A DNA stretch of 64,000 nucleotides. Source: Candidatus Latescibacterota bacterium (GTDB taxonomy: Bacteria > Krumholzibacteriota > Krumholzibacteriia > WVZY01). Of this stretch, positions 53,429 to 61,348 are shown in pieces. Where the stretch lies: the NCBI GenBank assembly GCA_963791045.1, contig CAWBQK010000010.1:47839-111838 (forward strand), written 5' to 3'. Position 1 is the first letter of the stretch; each line of letters starts with the position of its first letter. Under the pieces are notes generated by a model. That model did not search any database and was not told where the DNA came from. It worked only from the letters and a program-made list of their open reading frames with translations. Position numbers and translations under genes: made by a program.

Positions 53429-54688
53429 CTAAGACTTCGTACGCTTTTTGATCGTCGTCTTTTTGACGGTCGTTCTTTCGTTCCGCACGACGTCTTGACT
53501 TGCGCTTTTACGCGCAGGTTTTTTCTCAACTTTGGTTCTGTTCGACTTCGCCGATTCGCGCTTTGTGTTCGATTTCTTCACGACTTCTTTTGATTCGAGC
53601 TGCCGGCGGATCTTCGCCGAGTTCTCTTTGCTCTTTATAAAGTCGTCGCGAGAGGATCGAACCACGCGGTTTTTCCGCACGGTGTCCGATTGATTTACGG
53701 GCCTGACCGTCGTCGAACGGCGAACGACCCGCTGCGTTTTCTCAATTGTTGGAGCGGTTGTTATCCGCTTTTTCCCTTCGATAGGCCGTACGCGACGCTC
53801 GGCGCCCGCGCCCTCCCGGAACTTCCGGTTATCGGGATGCGACGGCTTGCGGCGCTCATCGGCCCTGGGATCCCGCACCCGGACATCATTTATGTCCTTC
53901 CCACCGGTGCGGTTGATTCGCGTGTATTCCGCATATTCGTTCCGGACCTCAACGGTCGGTCGAAGCACTCTGTACGGGTCCCGTGTGTGAACCCGATAGT
54001 GCCTGTGCGCGGCACAGTGGCCGCCACAGTGCTGGTGCCATCCGACACAGAGATAGCTCGGATAGCGGACATATTCCCTGACATAGAATCTCGCGTAGCT
54101 CACGGCCACATGGCCGCGGCGGCATCCGTGAGGAAGGATCGAGAGATAGAATAGTTTCGAGGCAACAAAAGGGTCACCGTAAACCTGGAAACCGATCCTC
54201 GGCCCAAACACTCCCACGCCATACGATGCATAACTGAACGGGACCGGGCTCGAAACGGCGTACGCAAACGCAACGCCTCGACCAAAATACCCGTCGTTGA
54301 AACCGTAATCGCGAAGGTCGAACCTGTACACCCTGCCGCCGACGAGAAATGCGTTGTCGCGCGGAGAGAGCGGATGAATCACGTGCAGGAAGCCCTCGGT
54401 GTCAATTACGTAAACGGTCGTGTAACAACTTCTCGACGCGCGGACATTGAGGACCACGTCGTCTGAGCTCGCGTACACATCGTATGCATATCCGGTGCCG
54501 TTATCGTAATCGTCATAATAGGTGTTGTTCCCATACCCCTCGTCCAGCCACACCCTCACATCGACCGGCGCCGAAGAGTAGACCAATTCTACTCTGAGAC
54601 CCGCGTTCGAGTTGGCAATCCATGCGGTGGAGAGCACCAGGGTTGCGGCGAAAACCAGAAACATCATCTTGATAGCTGTTGATCTCAT
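53429..54688 (-). CDS. Exported DUF4384-like protein with His/Cys patch and long basic tail
   Basis: Signal peptide; VDVRVWLD, VRASRSCY..VYVIDTEG.LHVIHP, YAVSSPVPF; Arg/Lys-rich C-terminus. Confidence 0.65.
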   Translation of the reverse strand: MRSTAIKMMFLVFAATLVLSTAWIANSNAGLRVELVYSSAPVDVRVWLDEGYGNNTYYDDYDNGTGYAYDVYASSDDVVLNVRASRSCYTTVYVIDTEGFLHVIHPLSPRDNAFLVGGRVYRFDLRDYGFNDGYFGRGVAFAYAVSSPVPFSYASYGVGVFGPRIGFQVYGDPFVASKLFYLSILPHGCRRGHVAVSYARFYVREYVRYPSYLCVGWHQHCGGHCAAHRHYRVHTRDPYRVLRPTVEVRNEYAEYTRINRTGGKDINDVRVRDPRADERRKPSHPDNRKFREGAGAERRVRPIEGKKRITTAPTIEKTQRVVRRSTTVRPVNQSDTVRKNRVVRSSRDDFIKSKENSAKIRRQLESKEVVKKSNTKRESAKSNRTKVEKKPARKSASQDVVRNERTTVKKTTIKKRTKS

Positions 54689-55554
54689 CGCGCACCTCCT
54701 TGCTCAGGGGTTAGCTCCGGGTTACCAGGACTCTCCTGGTACGCCCAATCCAGTACAACCAGGTCTAGACTGGCCGACTGGCAGTACACTTTCGCGTAGT
54801 AGTAGTAATCATCGCTTTTGTTGAGCATTTGAACTACGTAGCTGTGTCCCGGAATCATCTCAACCCGCTTGGAGGGAGACCAACCTTCCTCGATATCGGG
54901 GGCCCAATCAACGAAATCCAACTCGATGTATCCATAATCCTGAACGTCTACTCCGTCCCCTATCGAATTTCCCTTTCCAAACAGCGTAGGAATGCCGCTT
55001 GGGGAGCCGAAGTAGACGTCCGTCGTCGGATTATCCCAGGTCTGAACGGTGTATTTCGAGAAGTCGTAACCGCTCGGACCTGCGCTCTGCCCCAAATAGT
55101 CACGTAAGACAAGACCCGTACCCGCCGGACGCGGTGTATCAAAAATCACTTCGCTGGGTTCGCTTACCTGCCCAGCTCTGTTATATGCGCGAAGTTTGTA
55201 AAAATAGGTGAAACCATTATCAACATCAGTATCGACAAAGTAGGTTCGGTGCAAAGGAACCGACACCATGTATTCGAAATCACCGTCATATGCGTCGCTC
55301 CAGAAAATGTCGTAACCCTCGAGGTCCGTTTCTGTGTTGGCGTTCCAGTTGATCTCGATCCACTGATCCCCAGTAATACTATAGACGCCAGCTGGTGCGG
55401 CAGGCGGAGTGGCTACGATGACCGGGTCATCACAGTCGTCGCAGCACCCCGCAAGAAGTAAAATCGAAAGGATGGCGGCTGCCGCCAGCAGCTGTCTTGT
55501 AGCAACGATGAGGAATCGTTCAGTCGGGTAACTTATTCTCAGCAACGTTTTCAT
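54685..55554 (-). CDS. Lipoprotein with fibronectin type III domain
   Basis: Lipobox LAGC; PPAAPAGVYSITGD..IEINW.AN.E.DLEGY...NGFTYFYKLRAYN.AG..SEPS. Confidence 0.8.
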   Translation of the reverse strand: MKTLLRISYPTERFLIVATRQLLAAAAILSILLLAGCCDDCDDPVIVATPPAAPAGVYSITGDQWIEINWNANTETDLEGYDIFWSDAYDGDFEYMVSVPLHRTYFVDTDVDNGFTYFYKLRAYNRAGQVSEPSEVIFDTPRPAGTGLVLRDYLGQSAGPSGYDFSKYTVQTWDNPTTDVYFGSPSGIPTLFGKGNSIGDGVDVQDYGYIELDFVDWAPDIEEGWSPSKRVEMIPGHSYVVQMLNKSDDYYYYAKVYCQSASLDLVVLDWAYQESPGNPELTPEQGGAR

Positions 55555-55570: not shown

Positions 55571-55585
55571 GCAAGCTACGTGCCA
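55571..55585 (-). promoter_or_regulatory. Sigma54 (-24/-12) promoter of the FN3-DUF4384 operon
   Basis: TGGCACGTAGCTTGC, an exact TGGCACG-N4-TTGC consensus. Confidence 0.8.
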
Positions 55586-55717
55586 CGAGTGAACAGAGGC
55601 CGCCCACAGCGGACAAATAGGCCATATATAATTGTTTTATAGAGTATTACGCTATTTTAGCGCTTGAGGATAATGCCCCAATTGAGCGCTTTTGACACTC
55701 GAAAGCACCTAAAAACC

Positions 55718-55755
55718 GTGTCTATCCATTGACACGTGTCCTGATTTTGGGACAC
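55718..55755. promoter_or_regulatory. Tandem palindromes, candidate enhancer (UAS) for a sigma54 activator
   Basis: GTGTC-N8-GACAC directly followed by GTGTC-N10-GACAC, ~135-170 bp upstream of the -24 element. Confidence 0.55.
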
Positions 55756-55860
55756 AGCACAAAGACGCTTTGATATGGGGATTTCAGGGTTTGAAAGGGT
55801 GGATACGGGCGTTTGACAGGGAGATTAAACGAGTGAGGATCGGCGAAACTGCGGGCATAG

Positions 55861-56132
55861 AAAAAAGCTGACGGTCACGACTCCAGGAGTTAATGTTCGA
55901 GACCCCACCTCTCGAAATTAACGGACTCCGCATAGCTGGCAGCTGTGCCTCTGGAGAAACCGTGACCGTCAGCTCTCAATGCAACCTGACGGTCGCAAAA
56001 CTTGTCGAGAAAAGCCTCTGAAAACTCTTCTCTGGCTCCGAAATCTAAGGACTTGGATTCTTGGGGAACGAGTCCCCAAGAATCCTTTCCCCCACCAGTT
56101 GGAAGTTCCTTACGCACGGGATGACTTCCGTA
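55861..56132 (-). ncRNA. Candidate sigma54-dependent structured RNA (~270 nt)
   Basis: Starts at the predicted +1 of a sigma54 promoter; 13-bp and 14-bp perfect stems plus smaller hairpins; ends in a stem followed by a U-run. Confidence 0.55.
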
Positions 56133-56143
56133 CATTTACTAGG

Positions 56144-56158
56144 GCAAGCCATGTGCCA
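56144..56158 (-). promoter_or_regulatory. Second sigma54 (-24/-12) promoter
   Basis: TGGCACATGGCTTGC (GG-N10-GC). Confidence 0.75.
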
Positions 56159-56203
56159 AGAATCGGCCAATCCGGGCAAAATGCAATTTTATATCTTCTT
56201 ATT

Positions 56204-56216
56204 TATCAACATGTTA
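56204..56216 (+). promoter_or_regulatory. IHF-binding site
   Basis: TATCAACATGTTA matches WATCAANNNNTTR, with an adjacent AT tract, ~50 bp upstream of the sigma54 site. Confidence 0.6.
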
Positions 56217-56401
56217 CACAGGTAGGCGCCGTCCTACAGCGTGTAAGAATCGTCTCTTATTAAAAACATTTCTACACGTCGGTGACGGACGCACCTGAAG
56301 CGCCTATAGAGAAAAGACTTAACAGCAGTTAATAATGGTTATAAAAACTTTTAATAGGGGCGACTATCGAAGCCTTTAATTGGACGCACGCTATCGTAGC
56401 C

Positions 56402-59400
56402 TTAGTAGACGCGGATGTTATACCGCTTGATCTTGGAGAGAAGACTGGGGTAGCTGACGCCCAGCTCAATCGAGGTTTGAGACTTGTTCCACTTGTTTCG
56501 CTTGAGCGCCGCGAGGATCTCACGCTTCTCGAGCTCTTCGATCTGATCGCGAAGCGATGCCCCGTTCGAACTCGAACCGTTGCCGCGCGAGGCATGAACG
56601 ATTTCGCTGGGAAGATGGGCAAGACCCAACACCTCGCCATCATCAGCAAGGATCACGGCCCGTTTGACCACTTTCTCGAGCTCGCGGACATTACCCGGCC
56701 AGTGGTACGACTGCAGGAGTTCCATTCCATCATCCGTCACATCCGTGACAATCTTGTTCATCTCTCTCGAGTATTTCCTCAGATAATGGAAGAACAGGAG
56801 CGCGATGTCTTCCTTGCGGTTCCGAAGTGGCGGAACGCGCAGCGGAAAATCGTTGATGCGGTAGAAAAAGTCCTCGAGGAAACGGCCCTCGTGACACTGC
56901 GTCATAAGATTGACCTTGGACGCGCAGATTACCCGGACATCCACCGGATGGAGATCATTTGACCCAACCTTCCTGATCTTGGTCGAATCGAGGAACTGAA
57001 GAAGCTTGCCCTGCATCGAGAGCGTGGTTTTGCCGATCTCATCAAGGAATATGGTCCCGCCATCCGCGCGCGCCAGCAGACCCTCTTTGTCATGAACGGC
57101 TCCCGTAAACGCTCCCCTGACGTGCCCGAAAAGCTCGGACTCGAGCAGCGACTCGGGCATCGCCGCACAGTTGACATGGACGAATTGCTTGTCGCGACGG
57201 TCGCTGAGCAGATGGACCGCGTACGCGATCAACCCCTTACCCGTCCCTGTCTCACCCTGGAGCAAGACTGTCGCGTTCGAATGCGCCACCCGCTCGGACA
57301 GGTTGAGAAGCTTGATCATGTCGTTGTTCTCGGTGAGAATACTCTCGAAACCGCTCGCCGTGGGCTTTACCTTTGGCTCCCGCCGCTTCTCATTCCTGAT
57401 CAACTCGAATATGGAAAGAGAAATCAGTCGCGCGTATGCTCCCAGGAAATGCAGCGCTTCTTGTCCTATCGGCGTGTGTTCTTCCTCGCGGTCCTGATGG
57501 ACAAAAATCACGCCCAGGGTTTCGTCTTCAAAACCAAGCCCCTGGAAAACGAGTGTTCCCCTATCGGCCCGAAGTTTCTTGCGAACGTCCTGCAACTCGG
57601 GTTCATGCCCCAGCTCGGCGATCTTGAGTCCGTGTCCGTTCATCGCTGTCGAACCGGTATCGCTTTTTCTGTACCAGCCGAGCAGCGCCCTTGCGTCACG
57701 CCGTTCGAGATCCTGCACGGCAACGAGGTCGAAACCCTCACCCGTTGACCCGGGAATGGCAACAAACCCGCTCTGAGCATTGAGTTTGCCAATTATCAGT
57801 TTGAGCGATGCCCTGAAGCCCCGTTACGAGCTTCTCACGAGATCGCGACGCGCTCTGGATATCCCCAAACATGGGGATTTGTTCGAGAACACGCCGTGTG
57901 TCACGAGCCATCTTACCCTCGACTCTGCCCCGCATCGCCCGGAGAACATGGAGGAACTTGCCGCTGCGCTCGTCCTCGGCCAGACGAGTCGCCTCATAAA
58001 GGGCGAGAAGCGCATCATCGAGATTCCCAAGACGATCCTCGACGGTGGCGAGCAACAGCTGCGAAAGGATCTGGTCTCCCGGCTCCTCCATCTTGTGGAA
58101 CCCGACGACCGTTTCGGTCAAAACCCGTTTGGCTTTGAGCGACGATTCCTGATCGTCTTTTTTGAGATAGATCCGGCCAAGCCTTTGCTGCGAGAGGTAC
58201 TGTTCGTAGGGATTGCCATATTTACTAAAAAGCTCGACGCTCTTATCGAGACTCTCGATCGCTGCGTCGACATCCCCCGCCCGCAACGCGCAGAGGCCGC
58301 GAGTGCGGTGGAAGTAGCCAACCTCGTAAAACTCGCCACAGTTGTTGGCGATTTCAAGCCCCTCGCTGATCATCTTCTTCGCACGACGGGTGTCGTTGAG
58401 CAGATAATGAACATCGGCAACCCGGCGCATGATCTCCGCCGAAATATCGCCTTCCGGAGCGAGCTGTTTGGCTTTTTTGAGTGCGTTATTCAGGTTGGCC
58501 AGCGCCTCCTGGAGACGTCCCCGGCCGATCATGAGTTCACCGAGATACTCGTCGGCGAGAATCGACTCACGGCCGTAACCCAGGTCATTGGCCAGCGCCT
58601 GACCCCTCAGGATGAGCTTCTCCGCCTTGCAGAACTCGCCGCACTGGACGTAAGTCCGGCCCTTCATCAGAACGGCCTTCGTAAGCTTGTTCTGATCGCC
58701 AAGACGCTCGGCCATGTTCGACGCATTGGTGAACGCGCTGAGCGCGTCCGTGAAGCGGCGAAGCTTGGCGTATACGACACCGAGGTTGAGTTGAACGCGA
58801 ACGAGATGCTGGGAGAGACCCAACGATTTCGCCAGTTCGAGCGACTTCGACAACGAAGCAAGCGCTCGGTTCCAGCGGCATGCGTTCTTGTGCAGCAATC
58901 CGAGGTTATTATAAACGTATGCTATGCCGATCCGGTCTTCGATCCGGCGGTAGGAAGACAACGAATCCATAAAGAAGTCTTCCGCTTCGCTGGTCAGACC
59001 CAAACGGTGGTAGCAGTTGGCGAGGAGAAGCTGGACATCGGCCACTTCTCGATGCTCGCTCGAGTGCTTGAGCCGGCGATAAGCGCTGAAACCAATCTTC
59101 AACGCATCATCGTAGCTCCCTTGAGAATAAAGGATGTGCGCCTCCCGGTAGTCGACTTTTCCGAGTGACTCGAGAGGGGCGTCGTCGCCAAGGAGGCCTC
59201 TTGCCTGATCGAGAAGCGTCCAGGCCTCCTTGTAATTCCCTTTTTTTCTGTAACAATCGCCGATCCGGAGGTAAATCCGGAAGCGATCGGGGAAGTCTTT
59301 AATATCTTGGGATTCCAGCGATTTGCTGAAGTACTCAATCGCGGTCGAGTAGTTTTCGGTGGAGAAATGCATCTGCCCGATCTCCTCGTTCGGCGAGAAA

Positions 59401-59468
59401 ACCGAGTCAGGTTGCTGCCTCCGCTTATTATGCTGAAGCCCGTCTTTATCGTCCCGTGCGTTAGACAT
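56402..59468 (-). CDS. Sigma54-dependent activator: TPR array + GAF-like + AAA+ + HTH (~1020 aa), one frameshift near 57815
   Basis: TPRs (AYVYNNLGLLH.., VQLNLGVVY..); GETGTGK, ESELFGHVRGAFTGA, FLDEIG, WPGNVREL, C-terminal HTH. Removing one G from 'CAGGG' fuses the two track ORFs (LQASLKLIIGKLNAQSGFVAI..VQDLERR). Confidence 0.88.
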
Positions 59469-59959: not shown

Positions 59960-61348
59960 TCAGGCTTCATTTTCCCCGTTCTCATCGTCCTCCCGGCTCG
60001 GCTTGTACGATATTCCGTATTTTTCAAGCTTTTTATACAAATTACTCCGCTGCATTCCGAGTTTTCTGGCCGTCTTGCTCACGTTGTATCCATACGTCCG
60101 GAGTTTCCTCAGGAAGAACTCCTTTTCGACCGATTCCCGGAAATCGTTGTAAGTCTCTTTTTCGAGAAATTGCTCCTCAAGATTCTTCGCCGGCCCGAGA
60201 AGCGGAAGGTCTTCGACGTCTATTATCGGTTTTTGCGTGAGGATTACCAGGCGCTCGATGAGGTTTTCGAGCTCTCTTATATTCCCCGGCCAGTTGTACT
60301 CGAGAAGTTCGGACATTGCTTTCTTCGAAATCTTCTTTGGCCGCTGCCCGAGTTCCAGGCCTGTTTCCTTGAGAAAGTGATCGATGAGAAGCGGCATGTC
60401 CGACGATCGTTTTCTAAGCGGCGGGACAATAATGGGCACGACGTTCAATCTGTAATAGAGATCTTCGCGGAAGGTCCCTTCGAGACTCTCTTTCTGGAGA
60501 TCCTTGTTCGTCGCCGCGATCACCCGCACATCCACCTTTCGCGTCTCCGTCCCTCCCACACGCTCGAACTGCGATTCCTGCAGAACCCGCAGGACCTTGG
60601 CCTGGGCCGAGTGGCTCATGTCGCCGACCTCGTCGAGAAAAAGCGTGCCGCCGTCGGCCAGCTCGAACTTCCCCACCCGTCTCGATACGGCTCCGGTGAA
60701 GGCGCCTTTTTCGTGACCAAAGAGTTCGCTCTCGATAAGCTCTTCCGGGATGGCCGCGCAGTTGACTTCAATGAAAGCCTCTTTCGCGCGTGCGCTCATC
60801 TCATGCACCGATCGTGCGACAAGCTCCTTACCCGTTCCGTTTTCGCCGATTATGAGGATTCGTGCGTTGGTCGGCGCGGCCTTCTCGAGCGTCTCCATGA
60901 TGGCGAGCATTTCCGGATGATCACCAATGATCTTTGTTTTTCGCTGAACCGCTGCCTTTAAGGTGATGTTTTCGGTGATGAGTTTTCTCTGTGCAAGGCC
61001 GTTACGAATAACGAGCATCATCCGGTCTGCGTCGATCGGTTTTTCGATAAAATCAAAAGCGCCGAGACGCGTGGCCTCGACCGCCGTCTGGATGGTTCCA
61101 TGGCCCGAGATGATAACTACGGGGAGTTCGGGTTGCGTTTTGTGCAGGCGGGAAAGAACCTCGAGGCCGTCCATACCCGGCATCTTGATGTCGAGGAGCA
61201 CCAGGTCGACGACCTCGTTCTCCGCTTTCTGAAGCGCGTCGAGACCGTCCTCGGCAAGCAGCACGTCGTACTTCTCGTACTCGAGGAGCCGGCGAAGGGT
61301 CTCGCGGATCCCTTTTTCGTCGTCTGCAACTAAAATTGTTTTGGGCAT
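59960..61348 (-). CDS. NtrC/NtrX-family sigma54 response regulator (REC-AAA+-HTH)
   Basis: ILVADDE, LLDIKMPGMDG, GENGTGKE, HEKGAFTGA, WPGNIREL. Confidence 0.93.
   Translation of the reverse strand: MPKTILVADDEKGIRETLRRLLEYEKYDVLLAEDGLDALQKAENEVVDLVLLDIKMPGMDGLEVLSRLHKTQPELPVVIISGHGTIQTAVEATRLGAFDFIEKPIDADRMMLVIRNGLAQRKLITENITLKAAVQRKTKIIGDHPEMLAIMETLEKAAPTNARILIIGENGTGKELVARSVHEMSARAKEAFIEVNCAAIPEELIESELFGHEKGAFTGAVSRRVGKFELADGGTLFLDEVGDMSHSAQAKVLRVLQESQFERVGGTETRKVDVRVIAATNKDLQKESLEGTFREDLYYRLNVVPIIVPPLRKRSSDMPLLIDHFLKETGLELGQRPKKISKKAMSELLEYNWPGNIRELENLIERLVILTQKPIIDVEDLPLLGPAKNLEEQFLEKETYNDFRESVEKEFFLRKLRTYGYNVSKTARKLGMQRSNLYKKLEKYGISYKPSREDDENGENEA

Follow-up and report, generated by a model that had tools for sequence, protein, structure and literature searches.

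What is encoded in the gap between a sigma-54 activator gene and a lipoprotein operon in a Candidatus Latescibacterota bacterium? The question arises in a stretch of 64,000 nt from contig CAWBQK010000010.1, which we analysed as a whole and call the window. A first-pass annotation had read positions 55861..56158 of the window as a sigma-54-driven RNA of about 270 nt with mutually exclusive helices, and had suggested that it was either a novel small RNA (sRNA) or an attenuator, the direct output of the adjacent activator. We conclude that this segment encodes a structured, non-coding RNA of ~270 nt driven by sigma-54; that the RNA is conserved over two families of one order; and that a loop near its 5' end is perfectly complementary to the first codons of the activator gene. 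Our preferred interpretation, which we consider probable, is that it acts in trans and independently of Hfq as an sRNA of ~272 nt that feeds back on its own activator, in the style of Qrr acting on LuxO.

A conserved sigma-54-driven RNA gene

The promoter is read directly in the sequence. The exact -24/-12 pattern of promoter P1 occurs twice in the 64-kb window, against an expectation of 0.06, and both matches lie in the RNA locus on the minus strand. It puts the predicted +1 near 56132, where the first-pass annotation had placed it, and all the helices and hairpins that the annotation had described are present on that strand at the positions it gave. The first of them, hairpin P1, follows about 12 nt past the promoter. 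Among 31 extracted orthologous loci, 28 carry TGGCA[CT]-N5-TTGC at the same offset as the window; the hexamers are fixed and the spacer varies. We also found rpoN in the window's genome.

The element is present as a single copy in its own 3.66-Mb assembly (81% complete), in which the remaining hits are of 15-19 nt with E > 0.5. When 40 relatives were searched with BLAST, it was found in 11 of the 12 genomes of its own family (f1) and, with E < 1e-11, in 20 of the 23 genomes of a sister family (f2); five further families gave chance-level hits only. Families f1 and f2 make up the two families of one order, and f3 to f9 denote other families of the class. R1, a covariance model built on the RNA's 3' domain, was run over 151 genomes of the class and hit 31 of them (10/12 in f1, 20/23 in f2, plus the window's own genome), with one copy in each. 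Under strict (default) filters R1 found nothing in the 115 genomes of f3 to f9, and the divergent RNAs of those families, described below, are missed in this way.

For the study of conservation, the window was aligned with 28 loci, after L020 (a contig-end fragment), L036 (promoter and first 63 nt only) and L037 (partial) had been dropped. Nucleotide conservation runs from the -24 box to the U-run; no such constraint is seen in the promoter spacer or in the 10 nt preceding the RNA. Of roughly 270 nt, about 100 never change across two families with activator proteins of 57-77% identity. The RNA gene lies directly downstream of the gene for an enhancer-binding protein, which is the adjacent activator that the first-pass annotation had named, and this arrangement is conserved: the order TPR-activator, RNA, ORF289, ORF419 is kept, with the activator upstream in every locus that reaches that far.

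The RNA is predicted to be strongly folded, and its main helices covary. A stretch of 281 nt has a minimum free energy of -125.4 kcal/mol, compared with -88.5 +/- 4.5 kcal/mol in 200 dinucleotide shuffles (z = -8.15), none of which was as good. Covariation was counted on MAFFT alignments of the two conserved domains, with a control in which the 3' partner was slid by 1-3 columns. Six of the 12 counted pairs of helix P2 change on both sides, as do 8 of 12 in P5 and all four in P6. In P2, 99.2% of cells are paired, against 37-71% with the slid partner; in the 3' domain the figure is 96.6%, against 26-42%. For both domains, none of 500 shuffles reached the observed covariation score. Helices P1, P7 and P8 never vary or vary on one side only, and are therefore neither supported nor contradicted by covariation; in P1, all six pairs, and the loop too, are invariant in 26 distinct sequences. 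Hairpins P3 and P4 appear at their positions in most individual folds, with varying length and sequence. In addition, RNAalifold pairs the loop of P1 (UCCC.UGC) with the linker that follows it (GGU.GGGA). Four of these seven pairs never vary, one changes on one side and none on both. The putative pairing could be a pseudoknot with P1 or a masking of the seed in the loop.

The first-pass annotation had itself listed a lack of covariation, a dispersed repeat such as a miniature inverted-repeat transposable element (MITE), and conservation of an 81-amino-acid open reading frame (ORF) as findings that would speak against an RNA gene. As just described, P2, P5 and P6 covary. A dispersed repeat or MITE is ruled out by the single full copy in the window's genome and the single hit in each relative's genome. 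The window does contain an ATG-initiated ORF of 81 amino acids (55890-56135), which could make the region a small protein gene. Its ATG, however, lies upstream of the predicted +1 and within the non-conserved spacer; an in-frame stop stands at codon 8 in 17 of 28 orthologues; indels across the alignment are not multiples of three; and there is no Pfam hit. A small protein gene or a mobile repeat therefore has practically no probability in our judgment. The annotation had also recognized no Rfam family, and the scans agree: the whole window gave no hit at gathering score, Qrr included, and the region gave solely mir-541 at E <= 10, a chance match of 16 bits.

RNA libraries contain the element. 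In six RNA runs, 7-13% of the words sampled from the 1.4 kb surrounding it were present, and four metatranscriptome runs from four studies, all as Logan contigs, were compared with the locus. They contain near-identical contigs of 158, 191, 200 and 227 nt, with 0-3 differences, at positions 55952-56109, 55927-56117, 55906-56085 and 55883-56109. All lie in 55883-56117, inside the predicted transcript, and no contig of these four runs falls in 55582-55863 or 56146-56662. One metatranscriptome contig ends in Illumina adapter. Two more, of 199 and 239 nt, match the conserved ends only and differ in the middle, as expected of a relative's RNA. The confinement of the contigs to the element supports its expression; uncovered parts of the stretch, and the small word shares of other runs, were not taken as evidence of absence or of habitat.

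The mutually exclusive helices of the first-pass annotation suggest another role, that of a cis-acting leader in which two exclusive folds decide on read-through into the downstream operon. The RNA does lie upstream of an operon on the same strand, and the alternative pairing is real in the window: GACCGUCAG at 55994-55986, within P4, can pair with CUGACGGUC at 55972-55964, part of the 5' strand of P5, to form a duplex of -18.7 kcal/mol (z = -3.4). We asked how the best duplex between the P5 5' strand and the 60 nt upstream of it ranks among 300 shuffles in each of 29 sequences. It passes the 5% level in none of the 28 orthologues, so that the window alone does so (1/29); the next best shuffle fractions are 0.063 and 0.08, and in the closest relative, 87% identical, the duplex has only -9.4 kcal/mol and a fraction of 0.38. 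The upstream strand of the alternative overlaps P4, a small conserved hairpin of the GACC-GNNA-GGUC type whose sequence differs in relatives, and P5 is far stronger than the alternative in every sequence, at -15 to -27 kcal/mol. In 27 of 31 oriented loci, moreover, a conserved sigma-54 promoter of its own precedes the downstream operon, which therefore has no need of read-through, and no riboswitch was matched in Rfam. Because the competing helix is confined to the window, the sequence of P4 differs in relatives and the operon has its own promoter, we reject the attenuator reading, to which we assign a very small probability. What is left of the alternative "novel sRNA or attenuator" is its first half, a novel structured non-coding sigma-54 RNA.

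Complementarity to the activator mRNA

Three conserved single-stranded segments of the RNA were tested against the start regions of six neighbouring genes, and one strong match was found. The seed UCCCGUGCGU, in the loop of hairpin P1, is a perfect 10-bp complement of ACGCACGGGA near the start of the TPR-activator gene (-20.2 kcal/mol), and cofolding predicts a duplex between seed and target with a ddG of about -16 kcal/mol. With the start regions of ORF289, ORF419, the type IX secretion system (T9SS) protein and the second activator of the window, the seeds gave no notable pairing.

The target site is conserved together with the seed. All 20 orthologous gene starts (8 from f1 and 12 from f2) carry the identical 10-mer without any shift in position; with the window this makes 21/21. 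Within it, codon 4 is GCA and codon 5 is CGG in all 21 sequences, and codon 6 is GAC in 20 of them. On the flanks, codon 2 is TCC, TCT, TCG or GCC, and codons 7-9 show both synonymous and non-synonymous differences. The synonymous positions of the target site are frozen, whereas those neighbouring codons vary.

Other targets were sought in the window's genome. The 10-mer occurs 16 times in the 3.66 Mb, counting both strands, and one of these occurrences is the sRNA gene and one the target site; perfect complements of the three conserved segments tested above show no genome-wide enrichment. The G-rich linker has 5' untranslated region candidates in the genes for a CDP-alcohol phosphatidyltransferase, a DUF5916/CBM9 protein and an M16 peptidase, which share no common theme. 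We also considered GACCCCACC, the complement of the P8 loop, and rejected it as a target; it is found only as three variant copies of a dispersed repeat of ~110 nt with the consensus GACCGCACC. This repeat is a palindromic family in its own right, mostly intergenic and unrelated to the sRNA, with at least 30 copies in the window's genome, G000 (for example at C6:312185, C11:390392 and C13:329481) that read ...GGTGCGGTCTTTCGAAAGGCCCTTTCGCGGGAGCGAGCGAG...GAGCGAGGGCCAGAGAAAGACCGCACCG.

What the data add to the locus is thus the reverse arrow, an RNA complementary to the mRNA of the adjacent activator. The complementarity and its conservation suggest that the sRNA most probably pairs with the start of its own activator's mRNA and so closes a feedback loop. 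In the mechanism that we propose, sigma-54 RNA polymerase would start at ~56132 from promoter P1, presumably switched on by the TPR-AAA+-HTH enhancer-binding protein encoded just upstream, and would stop at the U-run after the long closing helix P5. It is from the adjacency of the two genes that we take the sRNA to be made, presumably, by this activator. The RNA would have two functional parts: a 5' hairpin that presents the seed loop UCCCGUGCGU, and a conserved 3' scaffold with the GGUGGGGUC hairpin and the terminator, which may serve stability, a protein partner and termination. In f1 and f2 the seed is predicted to pair with positions +8 to +17 of the activator mRNA, in the region covered by the initiating ribosome, and pairing there most probably lowers translation of the activator. 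The outcome would be homeostatic negative feedback, in which the activator drives the sRNA and the sRNA restrains the activator, limiting or sharpening the response. The same activator region also precedes promoter P2 of the operon for the lipoprotein and T9SS cargo; the RNA would tune that response too.

Corresponding RNAs in other families of the class

The locus itself (TPR-activator gene, gap of ~1 kb, ORF289 homologue) is retained in other families of the class, with a sigma-54-like promoter 210-320 nt past the activator gene. The RNA is shorter there and keeps only the hairpin loop GGUGGGGUC, the long closing helix and the U-run. With at most one mismatch, GGUGGGGUC recurs in the corresponding position past the activator gene in 20 of the 30 other-family loci: 6/7 in f3, 6/7 in f5, 4/4 in f7, 3/3 in f8 and 1/1 in f9, with 0/4 in each of f4 and f6. 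When its filters were switched off, R1 gave weak matches at the expected place in 6 of the 10 loci tried, with E values of 4.8e-4 (L082), 2.8e-3 (L076), 0.065 (L081) and, in three more, 0.34-1.3. Nine loci of other families gave no Rfam hit at E <= 0.1.

In three of these families, complementarity to the activator mRNA recurs with other sequences. In f5 and f9, a stretch near the 5' end of the RNA, GGUAUCGGUU(G), pairs with (C/U)AACCGAUGCC, which spans the start codon in the mRNA of the RNA's own TPR-activator; in f8, (U/A)UCCGGC-UCGGUUU pairs with AAACCGA-U-GCCGGA(A/U), with the U of the AUG bulged. The start-codon duplex is found in 8 of 8 genomes of f5, f8 and f9, at -14 to -25 kcal/mol for duplexes of short segments. 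RNAduplex runs of the 580-nt RNA regions against the 62-nt start regions gave uninterpretable multi-loop duplexes; an ungapped score and short segments were used instead. In the ungapped helix test, the best helix was the start-codon duplex in 3 of 5 genomes of f5 and f9 (p = 0.005-0.045 each). Pairing in these three families would fall on the start codon of the activator mRNA itself, where a block of initiation is expected. Seeds that differ by family and yet stay complementary to the same mRNA region amount to a natural series of compensatory mutations, and this supports pairing.

These duplexes also bear on an explanation at the level of DNA, namely a shared operator: one DNA-binding protein would bind both the sRNA gene's 10-mer and the reverse complement of it at the activator start. 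In f1 and f2 one site is the exact reverse complement of the other, as DNA-level recognition would also lead one to expect. The pairs of f5, f8 and f9, however, keep RNA pairing by means of G.U wobbles and a bulge, which in DNA are mismatches (in G068, at 3 of the 7 positions of one arm), and one U-A pair is exchanged for A-U between G048 and G076. The wobbles and the exchange therefore favour RNA pairing over a shared operator. Both sites, moreover, are downstream of a promoter or start codon, not at enhancer distance. We regard a shared operator as very unlikely.

A more serious competitor is an RNA of the CsrB, CrcZ or 6S type, whose GGUGGGG motifs and invariant stretches would bind a protein as their main function, leaving the mRNA complementarity secondary or coincidental. 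The invariance of so large a part of the RNA across two families exceeds the needs of an sRNA that works by its seed alone, and GGUGGGGUC, the sole element kept across the class, is one for which no target was found. Against the many repeated GGA-type loop motifs of RNAs of the CsrB/RsmZ type, however, this RNA has just two copies of GGUGGGG. A known partner is lacking too: none of the 36 f1 and f2 genomes, among them that of the window, yielded a CsrA, and no Hfq was found in 41 genomes of the class. Protein binding would also leave unexplained both the frozen synonymous sites at the activator start and the family-specific complementary seeds. As the main function we consider it unlikely; it is compatible with feedback on the activator if the 3' domain is a chaperone scaffold. 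Beyond f1 and f2, CsrA does occur in four of the five families sampled (f3, f4, f6 and f7).

A second conserved structured element, of ~90 nt, lies between the sigma-54 RNA and the ORF289 homologue in f5, f8 and f9 (L076, L078, L082, L083, L085 and others). Its outer helix reads CAGGGGUAU.../...AUACCCCUG, its loops are AAUGGCGAGAU and UAUGGACAUCCCCUCCGGUG, and boxes resembling TTGACA and TATAAT stand before it. Its UGGCGAGAU motif is also present in f3 and f7. No Rfam family matches the element, and a search of the window's genome that allowed up to three mismatches did not recover it.

The two kinds of RNA can be fitted, tentatively, into a wider scheme. There may be a modular, Hfq-independent riboregulatory system across the whole class, in which the GGUGGGGUC domain would dock a chaperone or other partner and the 5' seeds would be exchangeable, re-targeted in each family to the start of the TPR-activator mRNA. 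In sister families a second RNA of ~90 nt follows, with loops AUGGCGAGAU and CAUCCCCUCCGGUGC; in the window's order, the C-rich and G-rich modules would have been fused into one RNA of 270 nt, the linker of which could mask the seed. We consider this scheme possible but doubtful.

Several points weigh against the probable role of the RNA in feedback on its activator. Its ends, its strand and its dependence on the activator are predictions, and the RNA-library contigs give neither strand, ends nor level and could include DNA, which RNA libraries may contain. The upstream regions of promoters P1 and P2 share no single obvious activator-binding motif, and because these sequences differ it is uncertain that the activator drives promoter P1; a second sigma-54 activator, at 59960-61348, is encoded close by. 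As for the RNA itself, the G-rich linker may pair with the seed and mask it in part, and P5 encloses ~85 nt of structure, which is unusual in an intrinsic terminator. The conservation of the target has to be read with the relatedness of the genomes in mind, so that 21/21 are not 21 independent events, and a conserved N-terminal peptide, MS(N/D)ARD, accounts for part of the nucleotide conservation. When 9574 start windows from 3023 long ORFs were scanned for duplexes, the counts stayed inside or close to what shuffled seeds give, with no robust enrichment, and about a dozen other start windows score equal to the TPR gene. Finally, in seven genomes of f3, f4, f6 and f7 the ungapped test found no clear duplex with the activator mRNA (p > 0.05 each).

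The neighbourhood and the known systems

The features of the locus are collected in Table 1.

Table 1. Positions in the window of the RNA gene, its parts, its predicted target and the neighbouring genes
Feature	Position	Strand	Description
Sigma-54 promoter P1	56144..56158	minus	TGGCAC-N5-TTGC; read in sequence; predicted +1 near 56132
sRNA gene	55861..56132	minus	~272 nt, predicted +1 to end of U-run; conservation block, fold, single copy; ends predicted
Hairpin P1	56101..56129	minus	GGAAGU (56129-56124) / ACUUCC (56106-56101); 17-nt apical loop; read in sequence
Seed UCCCGUGCGU	56112..56121	minus	in loop of hairpin P1; invariant in 29-sequence alignment
G-rich linker GGUGGGGGA	56088..56096	minus	holds first GGUGGGG copy; nearly invariant
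Hairpin P2	56055..56085	minus	perfect 13 bp, 56085-56073 / 56067-56055; covaries
Variable middle	55980..56033	minus	hairpins P3 (~56033-56007) and P4 (55997-55980); seen in most single folds
3' domain	55861..55974	minus	closing helix P5 and U-run, plus P6, P7 and P8; terminator-like; P5 and P6 covary
Closing helix P5	55974-55961 / 55879-55866	minus	14 bp; runs into UUUUUU (55866-55861)
Inner hairpin P8	55897..55915	minus	UCGAGA[GGUGGGG]UCUCGA; second GGUGGGG copy; invariant in 29/29 sequences
Predicted target site ACGCACGGGA	59452..59461	minus	+8 to +17 (codons 3-6) of TPR-activator mRNA
TPR protein and sigma-54 activator	56402..59468	minus	presumed activator and predicted target
TPR protein	57738-59468	minus	Pfam TPR repeats
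Sigma-54 activator	56402-57718	minus	Pfam Sigma54_activat, AAA_lid_14, HTH_8; no receiver domain
Second sigma-54 promoter, P2	55571..55585	minus	fronts lipoprotein operon (ORF 54685-55554 and downstream); in 27/31 loci

In nearly all relatives the TPR protein and the activator form one open frame of ~1020 amino acids. In the window they are in different frames, with an activator part of 473 amino acids, and the split at 57719-57740 is either an assembly indel or a real split of the TPR-activator fusion. The first 125 residues of the activator are GAF-like by a language-model lead alone (score 0.91). The second activator close by (59960-61348) has a receiver domain, is encoded on the same strand just upstream of the TPR gene, and could also act on promoter P1 or P2. 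The downstream operon encodes the ORF289 lipoprotein (54685-55554; Fn3-like signature, lipobox LLAGC), then a DUF4384-like protein and a T9SS-sorted homologue of M6-like metalloproteases.

Further conserved sequences lie before the two promoters. Upstream of the sRNA promoter, in 56159-56401 and the orthologous spacers, there are two conserved blocks unlike those of promoter P2: ATACAAAnGTTTTTAATA, at about -140, and the inverted repeat TGTAAC-N16-22-GTTAC(A), in the region from about -80 to -40. Promoter P2, too, is preceded by a GTAA(C/T)...TTAC pair of similar kind, and these sequences may be the site of a bending protein or a regulator. About 150 nt upstream of promoter P2, at 55736-55756, there is also a palindrome, TGTGTCC-N8-GGACAC, which is kept in orthologues as TGTCC-N8-GGACA...TGTC...ACACG. 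Promoter P2 is almost leaderless, with the ATG of the lipoprotein ~5 nt past the predicted +1. One locus departs from the common arrangement: L036 (G012:C1:2292215-2297277), in a complete genome of the same family, retains the TPR-activator gene with the target site, as well as the promoter and the RNA's first ~63 nt, seed hairpin included. The rest of the RNA is missing, ORF289 and ORF419 are not downstream, and the locus looks rearranged.

How does this arrangement compare with known sRNAs? In Vibrio quorum sensing, qrr1 adjoins luxO, and the sRNAs Qrr1-5 are ~100 nt long and need Hfq. CrcZ, downstream of cbrB in Pseudomonas, and GlmY, with GlrR in enterobacteria, are likewise sigma-54-dependent sRNAs beside activator genes; they sequester proteins (Hfq/Crc and RapZ, respectively) by means of repeated motifs, whereas the RNA described here has only two repeated motifs and a predicted base-pairing target. 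Passages of PMC3262071 describe Qrr sRNAs that are made under LuxO and sigma-54 and repress luxO, and on that account the likeness extends to the sigma-54 promoter, the enhancer-binding protein and, by prediction here, the pairing of the sRNA with the activator mRNA. Unlike Qrr, the RNA of this locus has no match to the Rfam Qrr model; it is ~272 nt long, with a multi-branch 3' domain, and carries its seed in a hairpin loop. Its activator is a TPR fusion without a receiver domain, and its lineage is uncultured and T9SS-bearing; Hfq was found in none of the 41 genomes searched.

The arrangement also resembles that of pxr in Myxococcus. In passages of PMC5568312, pxr is an intergenic sRNA gene directly downstream of the gene for a sigma-54-dependent regulator, nla19, with a predicted sigma-54 promoter of its own and a fold of several stem-loops; the spacer is 262 nt there and 244 nt here. 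Pxr differs, according to the same passages, in its length of 108 nt, its three stem-loops and the nature of the nla19 product, which is a response regulator, and it has no sequence similarity to the RNA of the window; those passages of PMC5568312 describe no feedback of Pxr on nla19. A full-text literature search, with subscription journals and supplements outside its scope, found no such RNA described in T9SS-bearing or Ignavibacteria-like lineages, and in a 2025 survey of sigma-54 regulons (PMC12316311) the words sRNA, small RNA, non-coding and Ignavibacter do not occur. Because it matches no model, differs in size and architecture and comes from genomes without Hfq, the RNA belongs to neither the Qrr nor the Pxr family; it is a new RNA family in a known kind of circuit.

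Uncultured, T9SS-bearing lineages without Hfq have hardly been explored for riboregulation, and this locus offers a testable predicted circuit of four parts: a TPR-fused sigma-54 activator, a presumably abundant structured sRNA, a predicted 10-nt target in the first codons of the activator, and a co-regulated operon for surface proteins. The class-wide invariant GGUGGGGUC hairpin provides a handle for finding an RNA-binding partner, and the series of family-specific seeds is material for studying the co-evolution of sRNAs and their targets. Overall, the locus would reproduce the feedback logic of Qrr and LuxO from unrelated parts, and would thus be a case of convergent circuit design.

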